A DNA stretch of 64,000 nucleotides from Crocinitomicaceae bacterium (GTDB lineage: Bacteria; Bacteroidota; Bacteroidia; Flavobacteriales_D; Crocinitomicaceae), in assembly GCA_014762645.1 (NCBI GenBank), contig JABURP010000067.1:10926-74925 (forward strand), read 5' to 3'. This document shows positions 17,446 through 63,570 of the stretch, one piece after another. Every line of letters starts with the position of its first letter. Positions within the stretch are counted from its first letter, which is position 1. The translations under genes and the position numbers were made by a program. The notes beneath the pieces were generated by a model. The model had not been told where the DNA came from. It saw only the letters and a program-made list of their open reading frames with translations, and ran no database searches.

Positions 17446-17459
17446 ATGATTCATATCAT
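17446..17459. promoter_or_regulatory. FNR-type box ATGATTCATATCAT
   Basis: Perfect ATGAT-N4-ATCAT. A minus-strand -7-like TATACTTG (17416-17423) lies 33.5 bp from the dyad centre. Upstream of the Crp paralogue at 17389. Confidence 0.65.
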
Positions 17460-17475
17460 AGAAATAGAATCTAAA

Positions 17476-18186
17476 TCAACCCAAAAAGTTAGCTTCCTGA
17501 GCCAACCTTTTTATATCAGGAATTACAATGGATTTTGCAACCAAATCTATCACGCCTTCTTTATTCAATTGCGACAATGTTCGTATAGCTGTTTCCGTAG
17601 TAGTTCCTGCTATGTCAGCAATTTCCGATCGCGATAACGCAACATTCAGTGTTTTGCCATCTTCTTTAAACCCAAACGTATCGTGAATATGTAGAATTGA
17701 TTCAGAGATCCTTTCCTTAACCGTCTTTTGGGCAAGATTAATCAAATGTTGTTCTGCATTCCTTAAATCTTTCGTTAACTGACGGATAATATTTAATGAT
17801 AAATCAGAATTTTCATTGATCAATGCCATGCAATTGTCTTTGGCCAGATGACACACGTAACAATCTTCCATAGCTGTGGCCGTTGCCTGATAAGGTTCGT
17901 TACTCAATAAGGCACGATAACCTAAAATATCTCCGGTCCCGGCAAATCGTATGACCTGTTCTTTACCATCTTCCCCAAGTTTTGACAATTTCACCTTTCC
18001 TGAATAAATACAGTAAAGACCGTGTGAATAATTTCCCTGATAGAAGATGTTTTGCCCTTTCTTGTAGTAATTACTTCCTTTATTTTCAGATAGGGCTTCC
18101 TTTTCTAGTGCAGATAACGCACAAAAAATTTTGCTATCATTTGTGCAATCCTGACAAGATGGAATATGTAATTGTCCTTCTTTCAT
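17476..18186 (-). CDS. fnr: FNR-type oxygen-sensing Crp/Fnr regulator with an N-terminal Cys cluster
   Basis: IPSCQDCTNDSKIFC resembles E. coli FNR HCQDCSISQLC. An internal Cys lies in EDCYVC. HTH is AGTTTETAIRTL. Confidence 0.75.
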   Translation of the reverse strand: MKEGQLHIPSCQDCTNDSKIFCALSALEKEALSENKGSNYYKKGQNIFYQGNYSHGLYCIYSGKVKLSKLGEDGKEQVIRFAGTGDILGYRALLSNEPYQATATAMEDCYVCHLAKDNCMALINENSDLSLNIIRQLTKDLRNAEQHLINLAQKTVKERISESILHIHDTFGFKEDGKTLNVALSRSEIADIAGTTTETAIRTLSQLNKEGVIDLVAKSIVIPDIKRLAQEANFLG

Positions 18187-18260
18187 AAAAGTAGGTGCTA
18201 TTTGTTAGTCAAAGTTACATATACTCACATATTTTAATCTTATCGAAATCATTCTAAAAC

Positions 18261-18274
18261 ATGATATATATCAC
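18261..18274. promoter_or_regulatory. FNR-type box ATGATATATATCAC (one mismatch)
   Basis: Lies between divergent fnr and moeA. AAAATTTG (18298-18305) is 34.5 bp from the dyad centre on the moeA side. Confidence 0.55.
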
Positions 18275-18332
18275 ATTGCCTCTGGGGTGAATTGTCCAAA
18301 ATTTGTAGGAACTTTGTTCAAATCACACGTAC

Positions 18333-19505: not shown

Positions 19506-19531
19506 TCAAGCAAAAAGAAATGCAGTAAATT

Positions 19532-22029: not shown

Positions 22030-22082
22030 AATCTGTAATCAATTATTTAATACAAACTTACGATCTAGGAAGAATACAAATT

Positions 22083-22096
22083 ATGATAAATATCAT
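22083..22096. promoter_or_regulatory. FNR-type box ATGATAAATATCAT
   Basis: Perfect match. A minus-strand TAAGTTTG (22053-22060) lies 33.5 bp from the dyad centre. Upstream of ric. Confidence 0.7.
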
Positions 22097-22726: not shown

Positions 22727-22772
22727 AAATCAATATTTCGGGCAAAGTACGTGAATACTAAAACCGCAAAAA

Positions 22773-22786
22773 ATGATTCATATCAT
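22773..22786. promoter_or_regulatory. FNR-type box ATGATTCATATCAT
   Basis: Perfect match and identical to the 17446 box. A minus-strand GTACTTTG (22743-22750) lies 33.5 bp from the dyad centre. Confidence 0.65.
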
Positions 22787-23200: not shown

Positions 23201-23235
23201 GTACCAAATTTAACGCACACGCCAAAGTTTATAAC

Positions 23236-23249
23236 ATGATATCCATCAT
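23236..23249. promoter_or_regulatory. FNR-type box ATGATATCCATCAT
   Basis: Perfect match. A minus-strand TAAATTTG (23205-23212) lies 34.5 bp from the dyad centre, just upstream of the doxX-like start. Confidence 0.6.
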
Positions 23250-23370: not shown

Positions 23371-23384
23371 ATGTTTCATATCAT
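23371..23384. promoter_or_regulatory. FNR-type box ATGTTTCATATCAT (one mismatch)
   Basis: Lies 74 bp upstream of the first NarK-type gene. No TTTG at the 33.5-bp position; the nearest TTTG is at 23432. Confidence 0.45.
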
Positions 23385-23457
23385 GTTTTTTCATGGCATA
23401 ACTCATTTATGAAGCTATTAAACACATCTAATTTGGTACTATCAAAAATTAATCCAC

Positions 23458-29527: not shown

Positions 29528-29541
29528 ATGATTTGTATCAT
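29528..29541. promoter_or_regulatory. FNR-type box ATGATTTGTATCAT
   Basis: Perfect match. GAAATTTG (29564-29571) lies 33.5 bp from the dyad centre. Upstream of the hemerythrin-moaA-crp unit. Confidence 0.7.
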
Positions 29542-29598
29542 AATTCGACGCTCAGAAAATGGTGAAATTTGAATATTCACTAACAAATTACTGAGTAA

Positions 29599-30312: not shown

Positions 30313-31294
30313 AATAGTTGATCGCTTTGGTAGGGAACACAAATACTTAAGAATTTCCTTAACAGAACGTTGTAACTTACGTTGTTTTTACTGCATGCCT
30401 GAAGAAGGGGTGAAGCTACGTGAGAAGTCATGTTTTATGACCAGTGAAGAGGTCATTGAACTGGCTGAAAAATTTGTAGCGCTCGGAGTAACCAAAATTC
30501 GACTGACTGGTGGTGAACCGCTTATAAAAAAGGATATTGGGAATATCCTTTCTCAATTGAGTAAGCTGCCAGTTGAACTGGGCATCACTACCAACGGTGT
30601 TTTGGTTGATAAGTACATTGATACCTTTAAGAAAGCCGGAATTAAATCCGTTAATGTCAGCCTGGATTCCTTAAAAGAAGATCGGTTTAATGCCATTTCT
30701 AGAAGAAATTACTTTAATCGGATTAAATCGAATATTGACCTTTTAATTGAGAATGATTTCAATGTTAAAGTCAATGTTGTTCTTATTAAGGATGTAAATG
30801 ATGATGAGATTACAGACTTTATTGACTGGAGCATTATCAAGCCTATTGAAGTACGGTTTATTGAGTTCATGCCCTTTGATGGAAACAAATGGAACTGGGA
30901 TAAATTGGTTTCGAATAAAAAAATTCTTGAGACCGTTCATTCCCACTACGGCGAAGATTATGTAGAAAAAATCAAGGATAAGAAAAACGACACTACCAGA
31001 AGTTATCGCATCAAAAAAGCGAAGGGATCGTTCGGTATTATCAGTTCAATGACCAATCCGTTTTGTGATACATGTAACCGTATCAGGCTTACGGCAGATG
31101 GAAAAATTCGCAATTGTCTTTTTTCAAATTCTGAAGTAGACCTGCTTGGAGCTTTACGCAGAAAACAAAATGTTGAGCAATTGATATTACAATCCATCTA
31201 TAACAAGGAGAAACAACGCGGTGGGATTAACAATTTCGAAACGTCAGATTTCGTTTTAAAGGACGATCGGTCTATGGTAACCATTGGTGGGTAA
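30296..31294 (+). CDS. moaA: GTP 3',8-cyclase (radical SAM Moco biosynthesis protein A)
   Basis: LRISLTERCNLRCFYCMPEEG, RLTGGEPL, C-terminal CDTCNRIRLTADGKIRNC. ATG at 30296 preferred over the listed TTG at 30281. Confidence 0.92.
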   Translation: MDNTTKIVDRFGREHKYLRISLTERCNLRCFYCMPEEGVKLREKSCFMTSEEVIELAEKFVALGVTKIRLTGGEPLIKKDIGNILSQLSKLPVELGITTNGVLVDKYIDTFKKAGIKSVNVSLDSLKEDRFNAISRRNYFNRIKSNIDLLIENDFNVKVNVVLIKDVNDDEITDFIDWSIIKPIEVRFIEFMPFDGNKWNWDKLVSNKKILETVHSHYGEDYVEKIKDKKNDTTRSYRIKKAKGSFGIISSMTNPFCDTCNRIRLTADGKIRNCLFSNSEVDLLGALRRKQNVEQLILQSIYNKEKQRGGINNFETSDFVLKDDRSMVTIGG

Positions 31295-31304
31295 AAAAAT
31301 TTTT

Positions 31305-31964
31305 ATGAATCTATTTTCAAAAAAATATCTAAAAGAGTGGAAGTCTTTTGTTGATCATCATAAAAAAAGCTGCTCCTTTAAAAAAGGTGATGTTATTTTC
31401 TCAGCTGGTGATAAAACAGATGGAATCTACATCATTGATAGTGGCTTTGTAAAAATTACGTATAAGCAGTATGACGGGAATGAATTGCTTATCAGAATAA
31501 CAGGTAAGGGAAATGTTTTAGGGCATAGAGGAATTGGTGGTGATTGGAAATACCCAATTTCTGCTTATGCACTAAGTGACCTTAAACTGTCTTTCATTCC
31601 TATAGACACTTTTAACTCAATTGCTACGACCAATGCTGAATTCTGTTATGAAATGATGATCTTTTTTGCCAATGAACTTAAAAGGTCAGAAAAACGCATT
31701 AGTCAGTTACCTGTTTTAAACAGAATTGCATCAGCCGTCCTTGAGAATTATCAGGTGTTTGGGTTTGATGCGGACGAACCAAATAAGCTTTCATTCACCA
31801 TTAGTCGTAATGATATTTCGAATATGGCCCGAACCACTTATGAATCGGTGATCAGGTCATTGTCAGAATTAAAAAAGATGGGGGTTATAAAACTACAAGG
31901 AAAATCCATCTACATTCTGGACCTCAATAAATTGGAGGAGTTAGCCAATCCAAACGGGAAGTAA
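31305..31964 (+). CDS. Crp/Fnr-family transcriptional regulator without an N-terminal Cys cluster
   Basis: FKKGDVIFSAGDKTDGIYIIDSGFVKI, HTH ARTTYESVIRSLSEL. ATG at 31305 preferred over the listed TTG at 31284. Confidence 0.8.
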   Translation: MNLFSKKYLKEWKSFVDHHKKSCSFKKGDVIFSAGDKTDGIYIIDSGFVKITYKQYDGNELLIRITGKGNVLGHRGIGGDWKYPISAYALSDLKLSFIPIDTFNSIATTNAEFCYEMMIFFANELKRSEKRISQLPVLNRIASAVLENYQVFGFDADEPNKLSFTISRNDISNMARTTYESVIRSLSELKKMGVIKLQGKSIYILDLNKLEELANPNGK

Positions 31965-31990: not shown

Positions 31991-32004
31991 ATGATATAAG
32001 TCAT
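31991..32004. promoter_or_regulatory. FNR-type box ATGATATAAGTCAT (one mismatch)
   Basis: Lies 50 bp upstream of the phenol-lyase-type gene. Only a weak CATTTTTA sits at the 33.5-bp position. Confidence 0.45.
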
Positions 32005-32023: not shown

Positions 32024-33433
<1,410 letters not shown>

Positions 33434-34835: not shown

Positions 34836-36173
34836 TCACTTTTTTTCTTGCTGATATACAGATTCACCCAGATCTTTGAATAGCTGGTGTACAATAATCG
34901 CCAGGCTAATAAAAAGCAAACAACCCGAGAGAATGAACACGACGAAAATCGGCGAAGAATTCTCATGCATTTGTGCAAAAGATGAGTGTCCGTTTTCTGC
35001 AGACCAAACGGCTTTATAGATGCCCCCGATCACCAAGGACAACCAAAAAATAAAGAGAGATCCGTTGAAGAACAGGAACGCATAGTAAACCAGGGTATTC
35101 TCCACCGTGTTATTTGGATTTAATTTTTTGGCAATAAATGAAACGGATGCCAACAAAATACAGGTGTTAATCCCAATGGTTGTTCCCATAGAATGTGCTA
35201 CTGTGATATGGGTACCGTGTGTATAGTAATTAATTGTCGGTATAGACATAAGTAAGGCCAGCAACAGATTGACAAAGACCCAAAACTCACTTGCCATCAG
35301 AAAACGATAAGGCATGGCGTAAATTTTTCGTTCAGCCTGCCCTAAATTTTTGATAAAGATGTAAACGATATTCAAGAACAAGATCCACTCGGTCATGCTT
35401 ATACCGTAAGCCACATATCGTATCCATGGTGCTGTTGGAACGATATACGTATGATGCGCCCAACCGAACATTAAATTCGTCAATCCTAAAAAGTAGAAAA
35501 AGAACACCTTTTTGCCCCTGGCGAGCTCTCCATCTTTCTTCATTTTTGACATCAGATAAATGGCCGTACCGTATACCAGCATGTTCCAACTCCCCACAAA
35601 AGAGCCGTATGATTTCCACTGAATCGTCAGGTCTTTGATGAAATCACTGCGGATATCTGTAATGGCCCAAAAGTGTGCTTCAGTCAAGTGAAAGATCATA
35701 AATAGTATACCTGTCCCCCACATCCAAAAATATACTGGACCATCTTTGATCTTCTTCCAAACTACTTTGAAATAATTTATCCCAAATAAAACCCAACCAA
35801 GCAACACCGGAATAATAAGCACTGGCAAGAACTCCAGGTATTCTCTACCTCCCATCACACCAAAGATGTAACACATATAAATGACTACTCCCAGGCATAG
35901 AAATAATACCAGATGCGTTTTTTGTAATCTCTCTGAATAGAGCTTCAAACGCTCTACCCTGGTTAAGTAATAATAAATTCCACCTGTAGCTGTAAGCACT
36001 ATCCATGAAACAGCACTTGTTGTATGAATAGGTCGTAACCGGTTAAACGGAATAATGTCTTTAAGCAAATCTGGGTTGATGTACACAATGGATATGATCA
36101 TCCCGATAAATCCTGCAATCAATAAGGCAATTAAACCCGCAAGTAAAAATAGAATAGAGACATTTAATTTCAT
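34836..36173 (-). CDS. norB: NorB-like heme-copper oxidase superfamily subunit I (putative nitric oxide reductase large subunit)
   Basis: 12-TM protein of 445 aa. RPIHTTSAVSW, FHLTEAHFW, GWAHHTYIV and INYYTHGTHITVAH match the recalled cNOR NorB landmarks (VHTN, VHLWVEG, GHHYF, NYYTHGTQLTAAHGH). Confidence 0.6.
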   Translation of the reverse strand: MKLNVSILFLLAGLIALLIAGFIGMIISIVYINPDLLKDIIPFNRLRPIHTTSAVSWIVLTATGGIYYYLTRVERLKLYSERLQKTHLVLFLCLGVVIYMCYIFGVMGGREYLEFLPVLIIPVLLGWVLFGINYFKVVWKKIKDGPVYFWMWGTGILFMIFHLTEAHFWAITDIRSDFIKDLTIQWKSYGSFVGSWNMLVYGTAIYLMSKMKKDGELARGKKVFFFYFLGLTNLMFGWAHHTYIVPTAPWIRYVAYGISMTEWILFLNIVYIFIKNLGQAERKIYAMPYRFLMASEFWVFVNLLLALLMSIPTINYYTHGTHITVAHSMGTTIGINTCILLASVSFIAKKLNPNNTVENTLVYYAFLFFNGSLFIFWLSLVIGGIYKAVWSAENGHSSFAQMHENSSPIFVVFILSGCLLFISLAIIVHQLFKDLGESVYQQEKK

Positions 36174-36181
36174 TGCTTCAC

Positions 36182-36607
36182 TTATTTATACTTGATGGTT
36201 ACCCAACCGTCTTTAGAAAATTCTGAATCATAATTGGGGTAATAGCCCGTTGCGTTTACGTGTTCCAGGTAAGATATTATTGCATTCTGTTCTTCTGTCG
36301 AAAAATCAAACTGAGGCATAGATTTTACACCGCTATTTAGAAAAGTCCTCACATAATCGGACCCTTTGGCTGGGTCAGATATGACATTTGTCAGGTCTGG
36401 ACCAAGATATCCACCCAAACCATACAATTGATGACAAGCCGTACAGTTATTTTCTTGCCATAATTGTTCACCCCGGATAGCTTCTTTCGACATTCTTGGT
36501 GCAGAAGATGAAGATGTCTCTTCCCCCATGTATAGTACGGCATTGTAGACGGTAAAGACACTCACCAATGCAATTAAAACTATAAAATTCCCTTTGCCCT
36601 TGTACAT
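36182..36607 (-). CDS. norC: NorC-like membrane-anchored monoheme cytochrome c
   Basis: TM anchor (FIVLIALVSVFTVYNAVLYM). CTACHQLYGLGGYLGPDLT fits the NorC pattern CxxCH..G.G.Y..PDL. ATG at 36607 preferred because the listed TTG extension (to 36688) contains an FNR-type box. Confidence 0.6.
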   Translation of the reverse strand: MYKGKGNFIVLIALVSVFTVYNAVLYMGEETSSSSAPRMSKEAIRGEQLWQENNCTACHQLYGLGGYLGPDLTNVISDPAKGSDYVRTFLNSGVKSMPQFDFSTEEQNAIISYLEHVNATGYYPNYDSEFSKDGWVTIKYK

Positions 36608-36652
36608 AAATATATCTCCTGCTAAAAATAGTGGTGAATGCGGCCACCAAAA

Positions 36653-36666
36653 ATGATATACATCAT
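36653..36666. promoter_or_regulatory. FNR-type box ATGATATACATCAT shared by divergent promoters
   Basis: Perfect match. TATTTTTA (36623-36630, minus) and GAACTTTG (36689-36696, plus) each lie 33.5 bp from the dyad centre. Confidence 0.65.
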
Positions 36667-36757
36667 ATAAATGCTGATCAATATTCAAGAACTTTGAGTA
36701 AATGAACTTCGACTTGTGGAAACAACAGAAAGAAATGCCAAATTATCGAAAGATTCC

Positions 36758-42330: not shown

Positions 42331-42371
42331 CTTTGAAAGCTCAAAAGTAGTGCTATCACAACTAAAATTAT

Positions 42372-42427: not shown

Positions 42428-42441
42428 ATGATCTAGATCAT
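42428..42441. promoter_or_regulatory. FNR-type box ATGATCTAGATCAT
   Basis: Perfect match in the ctaA/nrdJ divergent region, 216 bp upstream of nrdJ. No -7 box at the standard spacing on either side. Confidence 0.45.
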
Positions 42442-42656
42442 GTGGTTCAATGATTCCATATCCAAATGTGTAGAACTTCAAAAAATTATGTAAAAAAAAG
42501 ACGAAATAATAACCTTATTTGGTTTGGGAATTACCTCTCAAATTTTCCAGCATAAATATGATTCACTGAAGGAACATATTCCTACTGGAAGAGGAAACTC
42601 TCACTTTTAAAAACAACAAACCACTCAACACTTTGTTGAGCAAAATCAAATAAGAT

Positions 42657-48065: not shown

Positions 48066-49493
48066 TTAATGATTCCTTGGTCTTTTCCCTATGTTATGTC
48101 TGCTAGTGTGTCTCATGGCTTTTCTATCCCAGTTCCAAATAACCACCTGGTATTTTCTCCATAGATAATCAATAGGAGCAACCAAAAAGTGCATAAACCT
48201 GCTGAACGGGATTATGGCTATGATTAAGAATGCCGAGACAACGTGAATCTGTACCCACATAGGTGCAACTGAAATCGCTTCAATGTCTGGGTTAAATGAA
48301 AATATCGATCTCAAATAAGGCGTAAGGACACTGGCAAACCAGGTTGAACCCCATCTTACAAAGAAGGCAACACTTAATCCGGATACGATCTGAATCATAA
48401 GTACAGTGTATACCATCATATCCATTCGGTTAGCCACAACTTGCAAGCTTCGTGTGGTCAATCTTCTTTTTATTAATAGTATTAATCCCAGTAAAGCGGC
48501 TAACCCAAATGCAAATGAACTGATTTCAAGGATTAACAATCGTACTGGATGTCCATTAAATGCTATTAAGGTTGACGGGAACAAGAAGGCTATTAAGTGA
48601 CCAAAGAACAAGATGATAAGTCCCCAGTGAAATGGTTGTGATCCCCAGAACAACTTTTTACCCTCAAGAAATTGAGTTGACAATGAGGATACTTTAAATC
48701 CGTTCTTGGTATATCGGTAAATAGACCCAATGATGAAAATAGCGAAGGCAACATAAGGGAATACGGCAAACATAATTCCATTTAATTGCCCTGTATTATT
48801 CTGTAATCCGATCGATAACAAATAAAACAGCCCCACCATAATCCCAAGGATTCCAGCAAAAAGCACCACATAATTCCTTGTAGCATGAGCTTCAGGAGCT
48901 ATACCAAGTTCCATTAATCGTTTTTTCGTATTTCTGATCATTCTGAATACGAAGAACAGGATAACCGCCATGATCAATATTGTCCATTTGATCGCCGTTT
49001 TTTCCCCTTCCGTTAACAATGGTTCATCTGCCTCAGCAGCTGTTGCAGTTGTAGCTGTCGCTTCTCCTCCTCCTGCATCTGCTGGTGCAGCAACTTCTAA
49101 ATAATCAATGATGCTTACAACCTCAGCTTCTGATAACTGGGTAAAAGGAGGCATCATCATTTTATTGTAGTCCTCATAAACCTGTACGGCATCCGGGTCT
49201 CCAGAATTAATTAATTCAGTTGAATTAGTAATCCATGAAACGAGCCATTCTTTGGATCTTTTTTCAGTGATTCCTGCCAATCCCGGTCCGGTTGATTCCG
49301 TAGAAGATAAAAGGTGACATGAATTACAGTATGTTTTAAACAGTTCTTCACCTGACTGCGCATTAGTGCTATTAGAGATGAAAAAACACGAAATGGTCAA
49401 TACCAAAAACGAATAGAATCGTTTATTTACAATTGATCGGAATTTATAACTAGACATAACGTTCACTTTTTTATTTATTTTACAACTGCTCAT
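48066..49493 (-). CDS. narI: Fusion of a periplasmic monoheme cytochrome c domain, two extra TM helices and the nitrate reductase gamma subunit (NarI)
   Basis: Signal peptide, CNSCH heme site with a MMMPPF Met region, Ala/Thr-rich linker. The NarI core then aligns to the recalled E. coli NarI (FPYVAFAIFIIGSIYRY, PFHWGLIILFFGHLIAFLFP, IIPFSRFMHFLVAPIDYLWRKYQ). The start may be Met13 (49457). Confidence 0.8.
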   Translation of the reverse strand: MSSCKINKKVNVMSSYKFRSIVNKRFYSFLVLTISCFFISNSTNAQSGEELFKTYCNSCHLLSSTESTGPGLAGITEKRSKEWLVSWITNSTELINSGDPDAVQVYEDYNKMMMPPFTQLSEAEVVSIIDYLEVAAPADAGGGEATATTATAAEADEPLLTEGEKTAIKWTILIMAVILFFVFRMIRNTKKRLMELGIAPEAHATRNYVVLFAGILGIMVGLFYLLSIGLQNNTGQLNGIMFAVFPYVAFAIFIIGSIYRYTKNGFKVSSLSTQFLEGKKLFWGSQPFHWGLIILFFGHLIAFLFPSTLIAFNGHPVRLLILEISSFAFGLAALLGLILLIKRRLTTRSLQVVANRMDMMVYTVLMIQIVSGLSVAFFVRWGSTWFASVLTPYLRSIFSFNPDIEAISVAPMWVQIHVVSAFLIIAIIPFSRFMHFLVAPIDYLWRKYQVVIWNWDRKAMRHTSRHNIGKRPRNH

Positions 49494-55392: not shown

Positions 55393-56067
55393 TTAAAATT
55401 TTGCGTCCCAGGCCTTACTTTGCCTTTTGAAAATTGCTTGTTTCGTCATTCTTCTTTTTCTTTTCATCCAGAGTATCTGTATCAATCCTAAAATGACCAA
55501 CAGACCGAAACCACCTCCGAAATAAAACAGCTCGTTACCATTAGCTACTGTTGCTGCTTCACTGTCATTTTTATTTTCAAGCGTTTCTTTAAAAAATGCT
55601 GTTAAATCAACCCTTTCTTGTTCGGTTAATGGGTTATCGGTATAAGATGATGCCATGGCAGGAAAAGGAGGAGCCATTAACCATCCGATTAAACCGTCTC
55701 CGAGTCGTTCATAAACATCTGTCAAATCCTTTGCAAATAACCCACCAGGAATTACACCTTCAGCATTCACATTATGACAGGTAACACAAGCAGGGCCGCC
55801 TTCAGCAAATCGCTCTTCACCTTGAAATAGTGCCTTGCCATTTTCAGCATCTGGAATTAGAATTACGGTCTCTTCTACAGTTGCCGTTTCATCCGCGACT
55901 ACCGCTGTTTCATTTGTGGTTTCATCAGTGTTTTCAACTACTGCAGTGTCATTCTCTGTTGTAACACTATCACCATCATCCTGTGAGAAAACGGTGGTGC
56001 TTAACATAAGAGCCGATACTATAATTGCAACTCGCATAAAAGCATTTAAGGACTTAGCTCGTTTCAT
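55393..56067 (-). CDS. Membrane-anchored monoheme cytochrome c, first gene of the nar operon (NarC-like position)
   Basis: Signal peptide, acidic Thr/Glu/Val-rich linker, a single CVTCH, Met-containing PFPAMAS, C-terminal TM anchor (FGLLVILGLIQILWM). Confidence 0.75.
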   Translation of the reverse strand: MKRAKSLNAFMRVAIIVSALMLSTTVFSQDDGDSVTTENDTAVVENTDETTNETAVVADETATVEETVILIPDAENGKALFQGEERFAEGGPACVTCHNVNAEGVIPGGLFAKDLTDVYERLGDGLIGWLMAPPFPAMASSYTDNPLTEQERVDLTAFFKETLENKNDSEAATVANGNELFYFGGGFGLLVILGLIQILWMKRKRRMTKQAIFKRQSKAWDAKF

Positions 56068-56140
56068 ATTTATTTGATTAAAATTGATATCTAACTATTG
56101 TTTGTTAGAACAAATTTCCCCTATAAACATGACTGAGAAA

Positions 56141-56154
56141 ATGATATATATCAT
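56141..56154. promoter_or_regulatory. FNR-type box ATGATATATATCAT upstream of the nar operon
   Basis: Perfect match. A minus-strand GAAATTTG (56111-56118) lies 33.5 bp from the dyad centre. It is 74 bp upstream of the start at 56067. Confidence 0.7.
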
Positions 56155-56555
56155 AAATTTCATGAATAATATCAGTTTTCGCATAACCAGTTGTTTATTA
56201 GTTAAATGCGAACAATCTAATGGGATGAGTTCAAGAAATTTTTTTTGATTTAGCGTGAAGATTTCATCATTTCACAGGAAAAAATGGGCCATTTGAAATC
56301 AAAAAAAACAGCAAAATGATGTTTATAATTGGCCGAAAGTAGTTCTCAAGAGAAAATTAACACCATGAGTACGGCGAATTCTTGTATCACCACTTTACGG
56401 TGACAAGAGACTAAGGTATTATTGATCTAACCATTTGTAATTCAGAGGTTAATTGACGTACTTATCCAACTGGGAATTTCAATACTATCTACTTTAACTA
56501 AGCCTGGGTGGCTGGCCATAACCCCTGAGTAGCAAGCACGATCACATATAATAGC

Positions 56556-56569
56556 ATGATTTAGATCAT
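56556..56569. promoter_or_regulatory. FNR-type box ATGATTTAGATCAT overlapping the stop codon of the sugar reductase gene
   Basis: Perfect match but no -7 box at the standard spacing. It lies about 490 bp upstream of the nar operon. Confidence 0.35.
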
Positions 56570-57441
56570 GAGGTTTTATACCTCATATAATCGTCTACAT
56601 TTGAAAATCTATAATCCGGATACTCGGACAAGAATTTTTCAGAAATGTGCCCGCTCATTAATGGTCTGGCTGCTGCCTGACCGAGTTCATTTGTGTTCTT
56701 ACCAATAACAGTGCATTTATGATTTGGCAAATAACTAAGAACCTTGTGTGCCAATTGAACCCGATTCATAAAATCGGTGCTACCGATATGATAAATACCC
56801 GATTTTTTATCCTCTGCTAATAGGACAGCTGCCCCAGCGACATCCATAGCCCAGACTGGTGTTGCGTATTGGTCTTGCGGTAAGTTCATGGTCCATTCGC
56901 GATTATCTTTTACATCATTAATAATACGTATGATAAAATTTTTCCCGCGAATTTCATCACCATAAACTCCACATATTCGAAGAATAATGCCATTGTCTGG
57001 CAACTCTTTCTGGATTAATTCTTCAACGAGAAGTTTGTGTTTACCATATACACTAAGTGGGTTTACATCATCTGTCTCTACATAAGGTCCGGATGTACCA
57101 TCAAACACATAATCAGTAGAAGTATAAACTATGCCAGCATTAAGTTGTTTGCAAAGCTCTACTAAATTCTTTGCTGTGCTCACTGTTTTCTCGTAACTCT
57201 CGTCTTCGTTAGCTTCACAATAATCGACATTGGCCAAAGCGGCACAATGCACGACAACATCCGGCTGATAATTTTTTACATCAAAATTTTGCGGATTGTC
57301 TAGATCAAGGGCATCAAAATATACTGTATCATCAGTTGGTAAAGTAAGATGTGTTCCTACTACTTCGTGTCCTTTTTCTTTTAAGTGTTTTACAAAACTA
57401 CCTCCGACCAGGCCTGAGGCACCAACAATAAAAAACTTCAT
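56566..57441 (-). CDS. RmlD-like NAD(P)-dependent sugar-nucleotide reductase (SDR)
   Basis: MKFFIVGASGLVGG Rossmann motif, VYGKHK catalytic YxxxK; 291 aa. Confidence 0.7.
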   Translation of the reverse strand: MKFFIVGASGLVGGSFVKHLKEKGHEVVGTHLTLPTDDTVYFDALDLDNPQNFDVKNYQPDVVVHCAALANVDYCEANEDESYEKTVSTAKNLVELCKQLNAGIVYTSTDYVFDGTSGPYVETDDVNPLSVYGKHKLLVEELIQKELPDNGIILRICGVYGDEIRGKNFIIRIINDVKDNREWTMNLPQDQYATPVWAMDVAGAAVLLAEDKKSGIYHIGSTDFMNRVQLAHKVLSYLPNHKCTVIGKNTNELGQAAARPLMSGHISEKFLSEYPDYRFSNVDDYMRYKTS

Positions 57442-57452
57442 GTCGTTTGAAT

Positions 57453-58004
57453 TTATTTAATAAAATCTGGATGTTTTCTGTCCTTATCAGATAGCACCGG
57501 GTTATCTGTTGGCCATTGAATGTTAAACAGAGGATCGTTCCAGCGAATTCCTTTTTCTTTATTAGGTGTATAAAATTCAGAAACCTGATAAAAGACTTCG
57601 CAGTTATCTTCCAGCGTAATGAAACCATGTGCAAATCCTTCGGGAACGTAGAGCATGGTATTGTTCTTATCTGTGAGTTCTATTTGCAAATGCTGACAAT
57701 ACGTTTCTGAGTCCTTTCGAATATCAATTATAGTATCAAGGATAGCTCCCTTTTGGCACCGGATCAACTTTGCTTCCTCTGCCCCGTTTATCTGATAATG
57801 CATACCTCTCAAAGTATATTTTTTGGTCGAAACGGATAGATTACTCTGGGGCATCACTGTATTCAGGCCATGCTCTTTAAATTCATTTGCACAAAAGGCC
57901 CGTGCAAAAGATCCCCGATCATCTATCATGGGTTCAAGCTCTATAATAAAAGCACCTTTTAAATGTGATTCTGTAAATTTCATAAGTACTCGCTTATTGT
58001 GCAA
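57453..58004 (-). CDS. dTDP-4-dehydrorhamnose 3,5-epimerase-family protein
   Basis: DDRGSFARAF, LRGMHYQ, VPEGFAHGF. Confidence 0.8.
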   Translation of the reverse strand: MHNKRVLMKFTESHLKGAFIIELEPMIDDRGSFARAFCANEFKEHGLNTVMPQSNLSVSTKKYTLRGMHYQINGAEEAKLIRCQKGAILDTIIDIRKDSETYCQHLQIELTDKNNTMLYVPEGFAHGFITLEDNCEVFYQVSEFYTPNKEKGIRWNDPLFNIQWPTDNPVLSDKDRKHPDFIK

Positions 58005-59001
58005 CTTCTAATTTATTCAACTTGTGTTTTAGCGTTCTGATCCTTACAAATTGATCCCCATCAAAATCTTCCTTTGAAAAGTTGTGTTCCTTGAACTTAT
58101 CAAAGAGTTCTACCATTCCTGATTCTACACTATATTCTAGTTTAAAGCCTGGAATAACTTCTGATAACAGATCAAAATTAACCCGATAGTTTCGCGGATC
58201 TTCTCCTACTTCATTTGTGTAAACGATCTCCGCATCAGGGAGCAGTTTTTGTACAATGTCTGCCACATCTTTTACCTGATAGTTCTCCTCATTGCTGCCA
58301 ATATTAACTGCTTTGTTAAAAATTGCTTCTCTTGGAGCTTCTGCAAATGCAAGGAATGCTCTGGCAATATCCTTACAATGAACGAGCGGTCTCCAGGGAG
58401 TGCCATCACTTTTGATCTGGATATTTCCATTTACAAAAGCACAGCCCAACAGGTTATTAACCACCAAATCAATTCTCAAATTAGGAGAGTGACCGTAAGC
58501 AGTGGCATTTCTAAGGTATGCAGGTGCAAAATTATCATCTGCCATTTTCTTTACTTCCTTCTCGGTTTCGATTTTAGAATGTGCATAAGCAGTAATGGGG
58601 TTTAGATTCGCTGTTTCGTCCAAATCCAATGATTCACCTTTTCCGTAAACTGAACAGCTCCCCGAGAATAAAAATCTAGGCACGCCAGCTTCTTTACTTT
58701 TCTTCGCCAGGTCAATTGATCCTCTTAGATTATTTGCATAAGTCAGGTCCTCTACGAGGTCTCCCATTGGATCATTTGAAATAGCTGCAAGATGAATAAC
58801 GCAGTCATGCCCGCTTAACTCATCCATGGTTAAATCTCTGAAATCTTTACTCAGTTCATTATCTGCTGTTGGCAAATTTTCCCAGGCGCATTCTTCAAAC
58901 AAGTTCAAATCAACACCTGTAACCTGATGCCCGGCATTTTGAAATAATTTTACCACGTGCGGACCGATATATCCTTTGTGTCCTGTTACTAATACTTTCA
59001 T
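57994..59001 (-). CDS. NAD-dependent epimerase/dehydratase family protein
   Basis: MKVLVTGHKGYIG, SGSCSVYG, YAHSK. Confidence 0.75.
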   Translation of the reverse strand: MKVLVTGHKGYIGPHVVKLFQNAGHQVTGVDLNLFEECAWENLPTADNELSKDFRDLTMDELSGHDCVIHLAAISNDPMGDLVEDLTYANNLRGSIDLAKKSKEAGVPRFLFSGSCSVYGKGESLDLDETANLNPITAYAHSKIETEKEVKKMADDNFAPAYLRNATAYGHSPNLRIDLVVNNLLGCAFVNGNIQIKSDGTPWRPLVHCKDIARAFLAFAEAPREAIFNKAVNIGSNEENYQVKDVADIVQKLLPDAEIVYTNEVGEDPRNYRVNFDLLSEVIPGFKLEYSVESGMVELFDKFKEHNFSKEDFDGDQFVRIRTLKHKLNKLEVAQ

Positions 59002-59052
59002 TACGTCTTTTATTTAATTAAATGTTTTTAATCCGATTGAAGTTGTATTTAA

Positions 59053-59829
59053 CTACTCCCAAATTCTCCAGGGTGGATTAGTATTCCATAATTTTTCTAG
59101 GTCAACTTTATCGCGCAAGGTATCCATGCACTTCCAAAAACCATGATGCTTATACACTACAATTTCACCGTTTTTAGACAAATCGCTTAAGGGTTGTGCT
59201 TCCCACATTATGTCATCAGCATCATCATGCAGGTAATTGAACACTTCTGGCTTGAGCACGAAAAACCCACCATTGATCCAACCACTGTTCTCTTTTGGTT
59301 TTTCCGTAAATGTTTTTACCACGTTATTATTGTCCATCTCCAACACACCAAACCTGTTTCCAGGCTGGACACCTGTCATGGTACAAATCTTCCCATTTTC
59401 ATTGTGGAACTGAATGAGTTCTTTAATGTTTACATCTGCTACACCATCACCGTAGGTCAATAAAAAATCCTCATCTCCAATATAGTCCTTTACGCGTCTC
59501 AACCTTCCTGCAGTCAATGTCTCCAAGCCTGTATCTACCAGAGAAATTTTGAAATTTTCAGCATGTTTATGGTGTACATCAACACTATTTGTGGCCAAAT
59601 CTACTGTACAATCAGCATTGTACATAAAGTAGTTGAGGAAGTAGTTTTTAATAATCTCTCCTTTATAACCGAGACAGATGACAAACTCGTTAACGTCATA
59701 AGCAGAATAAATCTTCATAATATGCCACAAAATGGGCTTGCCACCAATTTCTATCATTGGTTTTGGCTTCAAATGTGATTCTTCCGAAATACGTGTTCCT
59801 TTTCCGCCTGCAAATAGCACTACTTTCAT
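59053..59829 (-). CDS. rfbF: Glucose-1-phosphate cytidylyltransferase
   Basis: MKVVLFAGGKGTRISEESHLKPKPMIEIGGKPILWHIMKIYS; 258 aa. Confidence 0.85.
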   Translation of the reverse strand: MKVVLFAGGKGTRISEESHLKPKPMIEIGGKPILWHIMKIYSAYDVNEFVICLGYKGEIIKNYFLNYFMYNADCTVDLATNSVDVHHKHAENFKISLVDTGLETLTAGRLRRVKDYIGDEDFLLTYGDGVADVNIKELIQFHNENGKICTMTGVQPGNRFGVLEMDNNNVVKTFTEKPKENSGWINGGFFVLKPEVFNYLHDDADDIMWEAQPLSDLSKNGEIVVYKHHGFWKCMDTLRDKVDLEKLWNTNPPWRIWE

Positions 59830-59846
59830 TTCTTTCTATTTTTAAA

Positions 59847-60911
59847 TCAAAACTTCAGTCTAGAAAACTTTTTTTTTCCCAATATAAAATAGTCCCAAAC
59901 AATACTTCTTCTATAGATTCCGTTTTTGGCTTCCGTTTTCACATGTTTGAGCGCGTTTAATCTGCTTTGTTTCCATAATTTTCGTTTGAAAAAAAAGTGA
60001 AGATGAGCTGTCATAATAGCTCTTACCTCTGTAAACCTCAGCGTAAACAAAGCACGCGTTGCTGCTACTATATCCAAACCAATGCGCATAAAAATTGTTG
60101 GAAAGATTCTGCGTTTGGGTAAGTTCTTATATAACATCACCAAATTATTCCTGTAATTGTGGTAGAGTTTAGTAAAGCTTCCGTATTTAATAATACTTCC
60201 TCCAACGTGATACACGACTGATTTCGGATAGACAACAATATCGTACCCTGCATTGCTAATTCTCCAGGAAAGATCAATTTCTTCCATGTGCGTAAAAAAA
60301 TTGTTGTCTAACCCACCCAACTCGTGATATAGGTCTGCTTTGAGGATCATACATGCACCAGATGCCCAAAATATTTTTTCGCACGAATCATATTGATGTT
60401 CATCTTTTTCCAGTGTATTGAAAATTCTTCCCCGGCAAAACGGATAACCATATTTGTCAATATACCCTCCAGAAGCTCCAGCATAATCAAAATGATCCGG
60501 CTCTGGTTGGTGCAATATTTTTGGTTGAGCAGCACCAATATTTTTATGTTGGTCCATGTAATCAATTATGGTATCCAACCATTCTGGGGTTACTTCTACA
60601 TCAGAATTAAGCAATACGTAATATTCTGCATCTATATTAGCGAGTGACTGGTTATAACCACCAGTAAACCCGGCATTAATTTCAATTTTAAAAATCTCAA
60701 CTTCCGGAAAATTTTCCTCAACGTATTTTATGGAATCGTCTGTAGAACCGTTGTCAATATATACTACAGTTCTATCTTGATATTTGGTTTGAAGAATGCC
60801 AGGAATAAAGCGTTCCAGATAATCTTTACTGTTGTATCCTAATAACGCGATAGCGACTTTTTTACAAGTTATCCTGGGAGTTGAACTCATTATAAACTGT
60901 AAAGCTATCAA
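59847..60911 (-). CDS. Family 2 glycosyltransferase
   Basis: VAIALLGYNSKDYL, YIDNGSTDDS, LNSDVEV. The start may be the internal Met (MSSTPR). Confidence 0.8.
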   Translation of the reverse strand: MIALQFIMSSTPRITCKKVAIALLGYNSKDYLERFIPGILQTKYQDRTVVYIDNGSTDDSIKYVEENFPEVEIFKIEINAGFTGGYNQSLANIDAEYYVLLNSDVEVTPEWLDTIIDYMDQHKNIGAAQPKILHQPEPDHFDYAGASGGYIDKYGYPFCRGRIFNTLEKDEHQYDSCEKIFWASGACMILKADLYHELGGLDNNFFTHMEEIDLSWRISNAGYDIVVYPKSVVYHVGGSIIKYGSFTKLYHNYRNNLVMLYKNLPKRRIFPTIFMRIGLDIVAATRALFTLRFTEVRAIMTAHLHFFFKRKLWKQSRLNALKHVKTEAKNGIYRRSIVWDYFILGKKKFSRLKF

Positions 60912-60923
60912 TTAAAAATGTTT

Positions 60924-61988
60924 TCACGTATATATTGATTCATCTTCAATTTGAACTCTAACAGATTCTTTATGTATTAACTCCAGTAAATCCTTTACAA
61001 ATTCAGTACTCAGACCTTTTTCAGCTCCTATTGCAGTTCGTGTTTCGAGAATTTTTTTCCAGCGTTTAAGCTGCAAAACCGGAAGGTCACTTTTACTTTT
61101 AATCCTTCCAACCTCTTTAATTAATTGCAGCCGTTCATATATAATGTCTATTAGCTGCATATCAATATCATCAATAGATGAACGCAATTGTTCTATCATC
61201 AGGAGCTCTCCATTTCTCAGTGGCGACCTTTTATGTTTTAGTGAGGCTAAGATGGTTTTAAGATCACTTGGTACAACTTGTTGTTTTGCGTCACTCAATG
61301 CAGTTTCCGGATGAATATGACTTTCAATCATGAGCCCTCGAAAACTAAGGTCTAAGGCAAATTGTGATACTGATTTTATTAGCTGCCTGTTGCCGGCTAT
61401 GTGCGAAGGATCACAGATGATATCCAGATCAGGAAATAATCGTTGTAATTCAATGGGAATTTCCCATTTTGGGATGTTTCTAAACGGCGCATCCTTATGA
61501 GCCGTGAATCCGCGGTGAATTGCTGCAATTTTGTAGGTACCTGCCTGGTAGATGCGCTCAATCGCTCCGATCCAAAGTGACAGATCAGGGAACATTGGGT
61601 TTTTAATCATAACCGGCACCTTGGTTCCTTTCAAAGCATCAGCAATTTCCTGAACGGAAAACGGGTTTACCGTTGTTCGCGCTCCGATCCATAATATATC
61701 CACATCATGTTTGAGCGCATGTTCAACGTGTTGCGCATTGGCAACTTCAACGGTTATCGGAACTTTAAATTCTTCTTTGATGCGTTGCATCCATGGCAAT
61801 GCAATTGCACCTCTTCCTTCAAATGAATTCGGGCGCGTTCTGGGTTTCCAAATTCCAGCTCGAAATGCAGAAATAGAACAACTACCTATTAGTTCCTTTG
61901 CCGTATCGTACAATTGCTCCTCCGATTCTGCACTGCAAGGGCCTGATATAATTATAGGATGCCGGTCGTGATCAAAAATACTCTCCAT
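60924..61988 (-). CDS. Bifunctional 3-deoxy-7-phosphoheptulonate synthase (type I-beta) / chorismate mutase
   Basis: N-terminal DAHPS/KDO8PS-like barrel (IISGPCSAESEEQ, GIWKPRTRPNSFEG, CDPSH). C-terminal AroQ-type chorismate mutase helix (LRSSIDDIDMQLIDIIYERLQLIKEVG). Confidence 0.8.
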   Translation of the reverse strand: MESIFDHDRHPIIISGPCSAESEEQLYDTAKELIGSCSISAFRAGIWKPRTRPNSFEGRGAIALPWMQRIKEEFKVPITVEVANAQHVEHALKHDVDILWIGARTTVNPFSVQEIADALKGTKVPVMIKNPMFPDLSLWIGAIERIYQAGTYKIAAIHRGFTAHKDAPFRNIPKWEIPIELQRLFPDLDIICDPSHIAGNRQLIKSVSQFALDLSFRGLMIESHIHPETALSDAKQQVVPSDLKTILASLKHKRSPLRNGELLMIEQLRSSIDDIDMQLIDIIYERLQLIKEVGRIKSKSDLPVLQLKRWKKILETRTAIGAEKGLSTEFVKDLLELIHKESVRVQIEDESIYT

Positions 61989-62003
61989 TGGTTTGAGATC
62001 TAA

Positions 62004-63509
62004 TTAGTTCTGATTCTTTTTGGATTGAATTTTCTCTTCCGGTGTCAATCCTTCATTACCTACACTTAAAATACCTTCAGGCATTTCTTTGGTACATGGT
62101 TTTTCTTTTGGCGCGACAGAGGCTCCTTTATATTTTCGGTTCTTCATTTTTGGCAAGACTTCGCCACCCATATCTCTTTGAGATTTTCCTTTCTTGTTTT
62201 TACCACCAGAAAACAACCTGTTCTTAAGTGTTTTATAATAAGGTTCCCAAAGTTCACCATTGTGTAGATCTTCCAGTAAATGATCGTATTGTTCAGTCAT
62301 TTTTTCACGCCACTCCTTATTAAAATAGACCGTCTTTTCAGCCCATTTGTGGCAGTAGAAGCAGTTTTCACAATCCAGTTCCTCACATCCTTGTTTTTCA
62401 AATCGTTTTAAGAATCCATCCAGTGCGCGGTTATCAACAAACACCGGATTGTCTTCTTTTCTTGGATAGAGCATTGAAGTATTTTTACCATATTCATCAA
62501 TTTCAGTGAACTTGGTCATGTTGAACTGGAAAGGCTTGAAGAAATATTTCATTTTTCTCTTCAGGGAATAGCTGTCCTTCTCGTCTTTTGATTTCATTGA
62601 ACTAGCCGGGTAAGCGTAGTTCTGAACGATATCCAATAAATTTCCGTCGTACTTTCTGTTGTGGTATGCATCAACCCGTAAGGTTAAGATGTCCGTAGGT
62701 GTATTTCTTTCAACGATCTTGAAGTTGGTATATCCCATTTCTTCGTAATAATGCAGGTCTTCAGGTCGAATCCAGTTAGCGCGCAAGTAGTTTACAGGCT
62801 CTTCCAGACGGAATGCATTACAATACACAGAGCAATAATCCAATGGGAAATTCTGTTTACCGCGCCTTGAAGCATTGGAAAGCAAAACCGCATGATTAGA
62901 TGCAATGGCACAATCCTGTCTACACCAATTGTTGACAATAAGAGACAGATCAATGTCTACAGCTTCCCGCATGGCTCTTAAAATCTTAAACTCTCGGTGT
63001 ATGGTAGTTTCAGAAATCACAACACAATCTGCGCCATTGTCTTCCCAGAACCGCACCTGACGGGCGTTATCAGTTTCTCTGTGGGCCGAAATTCGAACTT
63101 TAAACTCCGGATAATTCTTTTTAATTGCCCTTAGAAAGAACAAGTTGGAAACGGTAATGGAATCTACTTCAATTGAACTTAACCAATCCAATAGTTTTCG
63201 CAGTTCTCTTTGCCCTTTCGTTGTGAATTCAACATTATTCATACTGGATGAATTCAGTAGGTAATTGAACTCTATGCCATTTTCATGACAGTATTTAACG
63301 TAATTGGCCAACCTTGTTTTATCTACATCAGGTAAATAGAAGGACGGTCTACCACCTCCAAAAAAATCGGTAGTTAGCTTTCCGTAAACCTCATAAACAG
63401 GGTAATCAGAAATGTTTTCAATTAATTTCTTATCAAAATTTGATGCAACCGAGAATCGGACGGGTCTGTCCTTCACTGGTACATTGTTTATATTCTTTGG
63501 GAACTTCAT
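62004..63509 (-). CDS. U32-peptidase-like TIM-barrel protein with extra Cys clusters (divergent; function unknown)
   Basis: Layout resembles the U32 family (GIEFNYLLNSS, VDSITVSN, ISAHRETDNARQV, GADCVVISE, IDLSLIVNNWC). Cys motifs WCRQDC...DYCSVYC and CEELDCENCFYC. Lys-rich tail. Confidence 0.4.
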   Translation of the reverse strand: MKFPKNINNVPVKDRPVRFSVASNFDKKLIENISDYPVYEVYGKLTTDFFGGGRPSFYLPDVDKTRLANYVKYCHENGIEFNYLLNSSSMNNVEFTTKGQRELRKLLDWLSSIEVDSITVSNLFFLRAIKKNYPEFKVRISAHRETDNARQVRFWEDNGADCVVISETTIHREFKILRAMREAVDIDLSLIVNNWCRQDCAIASNHAVLLSNASRRGKQNFPLDYCSVYCNAFRLEEPVNYLRANWIRPEDLHYYEEMGYTNFKIVERNTPTDILTLRVDAYHNRKYDGNLLDIVQNYAYPASSMKSKDEKDSYSLKRKMKYFFKPFQFNMTKFTEIDEYGKNTSMLYPRKEDNPVFVDNRALDGFLKRFEKQGCEELDCENCFYCHKWAEKTVYFNKEWREKMTEQYDHLLEDLHNGELWEPYYKTLKNRLFSGGKNKKGKSQRDMGGEVLPKMKNRKYKGASVAPKEKPCTKEMPEGILSVGNEGLTPEEKIQSKKNQN

Positions 63510-63556
63510 TTATTCAATATTTTGTGCGAAGTTCGATCAATAGAGGAGTAAATAAT

Positions 63557-63570
63557 ATGATCCACATCAT
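63557..63570. promoter_or_regulatory. FNR-type box ATGATCCACATCAT
   Basis: Perfect match. A minus-strand GAACTTCG (63527-63534) lies 33.5 bp from the dyad centre. It is 48 bp upstream of the U32-like gene. Confidence 0.6.

Follow-up and report, generated by a model that had tools for sequence, protein, structure and literature searches.

The closest described relatives of the system presented here are FNR, the oxygen sensor of Escherichia coli, and the regulatory cascades in which an FNR-type protein stands above other members of the Crp/Fnr family. The FNR box of E. coli is TTGAT-N4-ATCAA, in which the outer base of the half-site is T (G in CRP sites), and at a class II FNR or CRP site of this organism the centre of the dyad is separated from the -12 T by 29.5 bp. 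According to work reported by Spiro and colleagues in 1990, Ser212 of FNR helps to select the outer T of TTGAT. In the ANR-DNR (Pseudomonas), FnrP-NNR-NarR (Paracoccus) and FnrL-Dnr (Dinoroseobacter) cascades, an oxygen-sensing FNR is found on top, and Crp/Fnr paralogues devoid of the cysteines lie behind FNR-type boxes among denitrification genes (PMC1274295, PMC5398030). Here we analyse a 64-kb window (the whole stretch of DNA under study, which comes from a metagenome-assembled genome of the Crocinitomicaceae, Flavobacteriales) carrying multiple copies of a related dyad, ATGAT-N4-ATCAT. Judging from the sequence, these dyads are, with a probability of about 0.8, the sites of a Bacteroidota lineage of the oxygen sensor FNR, namely of the protein CrpB encoded within the window at positions 17476-18186.

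In the phylum Bacteroidota, the described members of the superfamily are of a different kind. HcpR2 of Bacteroides and Porphyromonas recognises the motif GTAACnnnnGTTAC (GTAAC-N4-GTTAC) and is devoid of the FNR Cys motif; its predicted regulon comprises only hcp in most Bacteroides species, and it was the only such regulator found in Bacteroides in a comparative study of nitrogen-oxide regulons (PMC1274295). MalR (BT4338) of B. thetaiotaomicron is tied to carbohydrate use (PMC8510549). The Crp/Fnr homologues of the Flavobacteriales, Ignavibacteria and Saprospiraceae genomes in a metagenomic study were classed as MalR-like carbon sensors, and no Crp/Fnr control of denitrification was reported there for those genomes (PMC8510549). 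CrpB belongs to the same superfamily and phylum as HcpR2 and MalR, but its lineage combines the Cys cluster with a respiratory regulon. Five of its orthologues (P0012, P0037, P0075, P0080 and P0106) bear in JGI/KEGG the MalR-type name "polysaccharide utilization system transcription regulator", which is probably a mis-annotation, given the conserved cysteines and the respiratory regulon. Our literature search found no paper describing an FNR box or an FNR regulon in Flavobacteriia or Bacteroidota.

The window contains ten perfect copies of ATGATNNNNATCAT (ATGAT-N4-ATCAT), against a mean of 0.32 and a maximum of 3 in dinucleotide-preserving shuffles of the whole window. An earlier, sequence-only reading of this DNA had listed these ten copies, together with four that have one mismatch (18261, 23371, 31991 and 42372), and had guessed a chance expectation well below one; all ten are confirmed at their coordinates, and the four are real. 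When up to one mismatch is allowed, the number of matches rises to 23 (5.9 expected from the shuffles). The nine one-mismatch copies that the earlier reading did not list comprise eight in genes, which is about the chance level, and one in non-coding DNA, at 56316. Nine of the ten perfect copies are strictly non-coding, and the tenth (56556) shares 4 nucleotides (nt) with a stop codon, which bears out the description of the copies as lying outside coding sequence. By a simple open reading frame (ORF) call, ~92% of the window is coding, and in the remaining 5.3 kb of non-coding DNA a first-order Markov model predicts 0.014 perfect and 0.53 one-mismatch copies, whereas 9 and 5, respectively, are observed. 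Among all palindromes of the form 5-N(0-10)-5 enumerated in the window, ATGAT-N4 ranks first (10 non-coding copies, 0 coding), and the runners-up are frame-shifted versions of the same motif. The dyads share with the E. coli FNR box the TGAT-N4-ATCA core and the 4-bp spacer; unlike in E. coli, the outer base of the half-site is A, in 10/10 window sites. The sole TTGAT-N4-ATCAA of the window, at 58051, is treated as a chance occurrence because it lies inside a gene.

The dyads are also locked to a promoter element. Each dyad was oriented to its downstream gene, and the Bacteroidota -7 box, TAnnTTTG, was scored at every offset over its 6 fixed positions. The first T of the box lies 29.5 bp (sometimes 30.5 bp) from the dyad centre: a box with at least 5/6 positions is found at exactly 29.5 bp in 6 of the 12 oriented site/gene pairs (binomial P ~5e-8 at a background rate of 2% per position), and in one more at 30.5 bp. 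Weaker boxes (4/6) are present at 29.5 bp for the dyads at 22773, 63557 and 31991. Boxes of at least 5/6 occur at 10 window promoters, and weaker ones at 3 more. The sequence-only reading had given correct coordinates for all its -7 boxes and a fixed spacing of 33.5 bp; the fixed spacing is real, but the value of 33.5 bp refers to the fifth position of the box (the first T of TTTG), the first T being at 29.5 bp. The distance from dyad to start codon varies between 42.5 and 98.5 bp in the window, so it is the promoter element, and not the gene start, to which the dyad is locked.

In Flavobacterium johnsoniae the box consists of T-12, A-11, T-8, T-7, T-6 and G-5, and the start lies 4-5 nt past it (PMC6847099). 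With this numbering (T = -12), the spacing of 29.5 bp places the dyad centres at -41.5 relative to the predicted promoters, that is, at the class II position, and the earlier suggestion of a dyad near -41 is thus supported for these predicted promoters. The distance between dyad centre and T-12 is the same as in the class II FNR promoters of E. coli, as judged by the promoters predicted here; unlike in E. coli, the promoters are of the Bacteroidota -7 type, served by a divergent primary sigma factor (PMC6847099). The dyad spans -48 to -35, upstream of the -33 region, and does not cover the -7 box or the start. No clear -33 TTTG element is found at the dyad promoters, only a T-run at -33 to -30, which abuts the dyad and in which G is not enriched; the -33 element of F. 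johnsoniae is also weak genome-wide (PMC6847099). The sites of the window, with the distance from the dyad centre to the first T of the box, are as follows.

17446-17459, perfect dyad, promoter of CrpA; -7 box TATACTTG at 17416-17423, minus strand, 29.5 bp.
18239-18252, degenerate dyad with 2 mismatches and one perfect half-site, fnr promoter; perfect -7 box TAACTTTG at 18210-18217, minus strand, 28.5 bp.
18261-18274, dyad with 1 mismatch, promoter of moeA-moaCB-MORN; -7 box AAAATTTG at 18298-18305, plus strand, 30.5 bp.
22083-22096, perfect dyad, ric/scdA and a gene for a protein of 152 amino acids (aa) of unknown function; -7 box TAAGTTTG at 22053-22060, minus strand, 29.5 bp.
22773-22786, perfect dyad, Thioredoxin_9 gene; -7-like element GTACTTTG at 22743-22750, minus strand, 29.5 bp.
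23236-23249, perfect dyad, DoxX_2 gene; -7 box TAAATTTG at 23205-23212, minus strand, 30.5 bp.
23371-23384, dyad with 1 mismatch, upstream of the narK-type MFS genes; -7-like element TAATTTGG at 23429-23436, 51.5 bp (about -63.5).
29528-29541, perfect dyad, promoter of hemerythrin-moaA-crpC; -7-like element GAAATTTG at 29564-29571, plus strand, 29.5 bp.
31991-32004, dyad with 1 mismatch, two beta-eliminating lyase genes; weak box CATTTTTA at 32027-32034, plus strand, 29.5 bp.
36653-36666, perfect dyad of two divergent promoters, with boxes at 29.5 bp on both sides: on the minus side, TATTTTTA at 36623-36630 for a cytochrome c and a heme-copper oxidase (NorCB-like); on the plus side, GAACTTTG at 36689-36696 for ADP-forming acyl-CoA synthetase-nadA-nadB.
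42372-42385, dyad with 1 mismatch, ctaA promoter; -7 box TACTTTTG at 42342-42349, minus strand, 29.5 bp.
42428-42441, perfect dyad with no locked -7 box, at about -97.5 of the ctaA promoter and 222 bp upstream of nrdJ, the gene of a class II ribonucleotide reductase.
56141-56154, perfect dyad, promoter of the nar operon; -7-like element GAAATTTG at 56111-56118, minus strand, 29.5 bp.
56316-56329, orphan dyad with 1 mismatch and no -7 box at the locked distance.
56556-56569, perfect orphan dyad overlapping the stop codon of an rmlD-like gene and located 415 bp upstream of that at 56141; neither side has a locked box.
63557-63570, perfect dyad, promoter of the U32-family unit; weak box GAACTTCG at 63527-63534, minus strand, 29.5 bp.

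The spacer between fnr and moeA holds two dyads with centres 22 bp apart, and the one at 18261 lies 50.5 bp from the -7 box of fnr. In the narK promoter, a conserved CTCAT half-site is found where a dyad at -41.5 would sit, and the same layout is seen in three related loci (L002, L011 and L012).

Three Crp/Fnr-family proteins are encoded among these sites.

17476-18186, minus strand, the fnr orthologue, encoding CrpB (236 aa), the proposed oxygen sensor and dyad binder.
16748-17389, minus strand, CrpA, a divergent Crp-family paralogue that starts with TTG; its gene lies immediately downstream of fnr and has a dyad promoter of its own.
31284-31964, plus strand, CrpC, a Crp/Fnr paralogue without the Cys cluster, encoded by the last gene of the hemerythrin-moaA-crp unit.

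CrpB has the two-domain Crp/Fnr architecture (Pfam cNMP_binding 3e-23, HTH_Crp_2 9e-15 and Crp 3e-6) and matches the solved FNR structures 5cvr/5e44 over residues 9-231 (4e-18). In a BLASTP alignment with an E. coli FNR sequence entered by hand, C11, C14, C22 and C112 of CrpB align with C20, C23, C29 and C122. The recognition helix TTETAIRTL aligns with TVETISRLL, with Glu209 and Arg213 kept, Ile at the position of Ser212 and Thr at that of Val208. CrpB is therefore like E. coli FNR in its fold, its four equivalent cysteines and the Glu209 and Arg213 pair, and unlike it in that its lineage has an invariant Ile for Ser212 and Thr for Val208. Across 26 orthologues (55-85% identity) the three N-terminal cysteines and the E, I and R of the helix are invariant, and the cysteine that provides the fourth ligand is nearly so. 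In CRP, residues 180, 181 and 185 contact the DNA, and the base immediately 5' of TGA varies in step with residue 180 within the family (PMC1274295); CrpB has Thr, Glu and Arg at these positions. The combination seen here, a changed outer base beside an intact TGA core, is the one predicted by this co-variation rule. With Ile at the Ser212 position and sites with an outer A, CrpB appears as a specificity variant rather than a canonical FNR.

The two other paralogues are both without the FNR Cys cluster and are sited among denitrification genes. CrpA shows only the Pfam cNMP_binding domain and a weak full-length match to Crp-family structures, and its helix (SSRRAKK) does not have the Glu/Arg pattern. 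CrpC has the cNMP_binding and HTH_Crp_2 domains, with the helix YESVIR (ETLVR in orthologues). The similarity of both proteins to DNR is at the family level, with nothing more specific seen. The arrangement is like that of the ANR-DNR, FnrP-NNR-NarR and FnrL-Dnr cascades and differs from them in phylum, half-site and promoter type, as well as in the CrpA helix, which is unlike that of DNR/NNR.

Six of the related loci discussed below, from Vicingaceae-type metagenome-assembled genomes (L025, L028, L037, L040, L041 and L043), carry, 2-4 kb upstream of fnr, the gene of another FNR-like paralogue, 235-243 aa in length. It has four N-terminal cysteines and a classical E--SR helix (TEQLSR), and it stands beside the E--IR type. 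The sequences of this pair suggest two FNR proteins of different half-site preference in one genome. The non-coding DNA of these six loci contains no perfect copy of TTGAT-N4-ATCAA and two copies with one mismatch.

For a wider comparison, one genome per species was scanned with the alignment of the FNR orthologues, which gave 80 loci (at most 20.7 kb each) belonging to Flavobacteriales, Cytophagales, Chitinophagales and groups further removed. They contain 133 perfect copies of ATGAT-N4-ATCAT and 6 of TTGAT-N4-ATCAA. The former are distributed as 121 in 174 kb of non-coding and 12 in 1,174 kb of coding DNA, a ~70-fold difference in density; the comparison of densities inside and outside genes, which the sequence-only reading had named as a check on itself, thus comes out in its favour. 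In L001-L055 the dyad ranks first among the non-coding palindromes and occurs in 49 of the 55 loci, whereas in L056-L080 (Ignavibacteria, Calditrichota and Hydrotalea) it is weakly present, with 7 non-coding copies. When the flanks are aligned on the dyad, they are informative at two places only, namely the T-run at -33 to -30 and TA..TTT at +29.5 to +35.5. A box of at least 5/6 is located at exactly 29.5 bp in 61 of 155 oriented pairs and at 30.5 bp in 10 (background 2-3 per position), and TTT at -8 to -6 is seen in 81 of the 155 pairs (~6 by chance). There is a second spacing peak, at 51.5 bp, mostly upstream of fnr itself and, by inspection of the sequences, also of narK. T-12 and G-5, near-invariant in the constitutive promoters of F. 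johnsoniae (PMC6847099), are present in only 54% and 43% of the dyad promoters, respectively; such sub-optimal boxes, with no clear -33 TTTG, fit a dependence on an activator.

The dyad heads the same gene families in the relatives as in the window: fnr, moeA, CrpA-like genes, MFS/narK, ric, hemerythrin, the nar cytochrome c, DoxX, Trx9, the 152-aa unknown and U32; families of MobA, ThiS and radical-SAM proteins are found there too. It is present at the promoter of fnr itself in 27-32 loci. All eight CrpA homologues preceded by a perfect dyad have it at the -41.5 spacing. The hemerythrin homologues of 14 related loci have a dyad upstream, and in every case a G[AT]nnTTTA box at 29.5 bp accompanies it.

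Public metagenome contigs were scanned for the composite ATGAT-N4-ATCAT-N22-TAnnTTTG, which is not anchored on fnr, and at least 120 contigs were obtained. Among the matches listed, 102 of 122 lie outside ORFs, and for 77 a gene begins no more than 150 nt from the predicted transcription start (median leader, 20 nt). The genes downstream of the listed matches include at least three homologous radical-SAM genes identified as hemN (oxygen-independent coproporphyrinogen oxidase; both of the two tested score above the equivalog cut-off), at least five ccoS/fixS, at least five universal stress proteins and at least three cbb3-type cytochromes c. The nitrogen genes in this list are nirK (copper nitrite reductase, equivalog), at least four narI-cytochrome c and narG; sulfide:quinone reductase, pta, PPDK and pyruvate:ferredoxin oxidoreductase also occur. 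These are textbook targets of FNR, ANR and FixK. Together with the genes of the window, they are like the E. coli FNR regulon in comprising nar, narK, molybdenum cofactor synthesis, hemN and usp.

In the mechanism that we propose, the four conserved cysteines of CrpB would hold a [4Fe-4S] cluster when oxygen is absent, and the cluster-bearing protein would dimerise and then bind ATGAT-N4-ATCAT. The TGA core would be read by the conserved Glu and Arg, and the outer A in place of T would go with Ile at the Ser212 position and Thr at the position of CRP R180. With its centre 29.5 bp upstream of the first T of the -7 box, the dyad would be located at -41.5 to the predicted start (at about -63.5 for fnr and narK), and from -41.5 FNR would activate RNA polymerase carrying the Bacteroidota primary sigma factor, in the manner of the class II FNR/CRP activators of E. 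coli. What the data show directly is the enrichment, spacing and conservation of the motif, the features of the regulator and the functions of the targets; binding by CrpB, activation, the response to oxygen and the transcription starts are inferred. The predicted targets are nar, narK, molybdenum cofactor synthesis, the NorCB-like oxidase, ric, hemerythrin, ctaA, the U32 operon and ACS (acyl-CoA synthetase)-nadAB. Two further Crp paralogues are among the predicted targets, and a regulatory cascade like ANR-DNR may result. The FNR-type anaerobic regulon put forward in the sequence-only reading is supported by the presence of the FNR orthologue among the sites, by the conservation in the 80 loci, by the predicted -41.5 position and by the targets of the metagenome scan.

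Several observations weigh against this explanation. The cysteines of CrpB are spaced as CX2CX7C and not as CX2CX5C, and the lineage has not kept Ser212. For three dyads (42428, 56556 and 56316) a -7 box is missing at the locked distance, and the promoters of fnr and narK use the other spacing (about -63.5). The related loci were picked via the fnr gene, so that fnr and the motif occur together there partly as a result of the selection. The metagenome scan makes up for this through its target functions only: it was run without a matched (spacing-shifted) control pattern, and only the functional content of its targets therefore counts as evidence. The helix of CrpC shares with that of CrpB the E--[IV]R pattern; CrpC could thus bind the same sites, and sequence alone cannot assign them to one protein. 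The main alternative is that a Cys-less paralogue (of the CrpC or CrpA type) reads the dyads, mainly or partly, in response to nitric oxide (NO), nitrate/nitrite or another signal, as DNR and NNR do; FNR would then control only the head of the cascade. The helices of CrpC and CrpB have in common Glu, Arg and a hydrophobic residue, which speaks for this alternative, as do the location of crpC inside a dyad-controlled operon with hemerythrin, the NO-related functions of many targets (ric, the NorCB-like oxidase, hemerythrin) and the near-identical boxes of the ANR/DNR and FnrP/NNR pairs (PMC1274295). On the other hand, many of the related loci have dyads but no CrpC homologue within 10 kb, a dyad is found at the promoter of fnr itself, and the unanchored targets hemN, ccoS and usp are typically regulated by oxygen and not by NO. 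These three observations together favour FNR as the main reader; CrpA as the reader is further disfavoured by its helix, and we regard the alternative as unlikely, though worth keeping in mind.

Operators, too, usually take the form of a palindrome near a promoter, and FNR itself represses some promoters, so the dyad might be imagined as the site of a repressor, of the Crp or another family, that silences these promoters under oxic conditions. This is very improbable because the dyad is locked upstream of the -33 region (-48 to -35) rather than over the -7 box or the start; moreover, the sub-optimal -7 boxes are what one would expect of promoters that require an activator, and the 36653 dyad serves its two divergent promoters symmetrically. 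Still less credence can be given to the explanation of the copies as chance occurrences in AT-rich DNA or as remnants of a small repeated or mobile element. The motif and its spacers are indeed AT-rich, and at 0.32 expected per window one or two of the orphans could have arisen by chance, but nine perfect copies stand against 0.014 expected in non-coding DNA, and the motif is kept at orthologous promoters across several orders. Chance is thus effectively refuted as an explanation of the whole set and applies to individual orphan copies only. The origin from a repeat or mobile element was rejected, as the flanks beyond the dyad and the -7 box are not conserved.

The genes of the units were checked with Pfam and NCBIfam, and the labels of the sequence-only reading are right in general, with one exception: the "NorB-like" protein gives weak COX1/ccoN matches and matches no curated NorB model of these databases, so that this label is tentative. 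The NorCB-like pair (34836-36607, minus strand) consists of a 445-aa protein of the heme-copper oxidase superfamily and a small cytochrome c, and the oxidase may belong to a non-canonical NO-reductase or oxidase family. The narG of the window is an equivalog (1,469 bits), accompanied by narH, a weak narJ and a narI fused to cytochrome c. The order in the nar operon is cytochrome c, narG, narH, narJ-like, cytochrome c-narI, followed on the same strand by modA, TOBE, modB and modC. NarI with its N-terminal cytochrome c domain is encoded at 48066-49493 (minus strand), and the first gene of the operon (55393-56067, minus strand) encodes a 224-aa membrane-anchored cytochrome c with a CVTCH motif; the fusion and the leading membrane-anchored cytochrome c represent an unusual electron input for a NarGHI-type reductase. 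Nitrate/nitrite transport is represented by two MFS (narK-type) genes, and molybdenum cofactor synthesis by moeA, moaC-moaB and moaA. The other targets in the window are ric/scdA, a second hemerythrin, Thioredoxin_9, DoxX_2, the two beta-eliminating lyases, the ADP-forming acyl-CoA synthetase with nadA/nadB, ctaA and the U32-family protein.

The dyad at 63557 heads a tight seven-gene unit (56566-63509, minus strand) that encodes a 501-aa U32 protein, a DAHP synthase/chorismate mutase fusion, a GT2 protein, a nucleotidyl transferase, an epimerase, RmlC and an RmlD-like reductase. The U32 family includes UbiU/V and TrhP, hydroxylases that need prephenate and work without oxygen, and the location of a U32 gene beside chorismate mutase under an FNR-type box is suggestive for this reason. 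The ribonucleotide reductase adjoining the 42428 dyad is the class II, B12-dependent (oxygen-independent) NrdJ; the 222-bp region upstream of its gene (42428-42657) opens at the perfect dyad and shows no locked -7 box and no match to a B12 riboswitch. A scan of the whole window with Rfam, in which molybdenum cofactor and B12 riboswitches were sought for the long leaders (e.g. those of moeA, nar and nrdJ), gave no match at the gathering score. The 500-bp gap upstream of the nar operon, at 56067-56566, holds the promoter dyad (56141), the one-mismatch orphan at 56316 and, at its far end, the perfect orphan at 56556. No small gene that would be plausible was found in it, the 56556 orphan has a -7 box neither at 29.5 nor at 51.5 bp, and a scan for sigma-70-type promoters there gave results at the chance level.

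At the promoter of hemerythrin-moaA-crp, an AT-rich imperfect palindrome of ~28 bp, roughly ACC-GATATTTA-CAtAAAAATATtACGG, extends over the -7-like box and the predicted start (29561-29590). It recurs just 3' of the hemerythrin dyads in 11 related loci (L006, L007, L008, L013, L014, L023, L024, L026, L027, L030 and L044), and the window version contains GTGAA-N9-TTCAC. Judging by its sequence and position, a second regulator could use this palindrome as its operator, in addition to the FNR-type dyad. Upstream of the regulon, at 6463-16189, a dense signalling cluster encodes a 1,225-aa hybrid histidine kinase with multiple PAS domains, a response regulator of the LytTR type and five receiver-domain proteins, stand-alone or short. 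None of its genes has a dyad, and the cluster may take part, beside FNR, in the sensing of nitrate or redox state.

In general, an FNR box at a class II promoter is of a well-known kind, and the finding is solid and useful but unsurprising in principle. What is new in comparison with E. coli FNR, namely the outer A, the invariant Ile and the classical geometry on Bacteroidota promoters, does not seem to have been described before. The odds are roughly even that an FNR lineage extends across much of the Bacteroidota in which Ser212 has been replaced by Ile and the outer T retuned to A, while the -41.5 geometry has been kept on the promoters of the Bacteroidota sigma factor, including symmetric two-way activation from one dyad. 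If true, the phylum would have its first regulatory code for oxygen and denitrification, and the occurrence of an E--IR FNR beside a classical E--SR paralogue in some families suggests two orthogonal FNR regulons per cell. The combination of Ile and A, compared with Ser and T in E. coli, is a clear-cut example, open to testing, of a regulator and its site co-evolving, and the system is suited to asking how class II activators contact RNA polymerase with the divergent Bacteroidota sigma factor. In the sea, in freshwater, in wastewater and in the gut, Bacteroidota take a major part in the cycling of nitrogen and carbon, and their low-oxygen/nitrate switch is poorly described. The composite signature of ATGAT-N4-ATCAT, 22 bp and TAnnTTTG would correct the annotation of the regulator and would allow oxygen-responsive promoters of Bacteroidota to be predicted in genomes and metagenomes.

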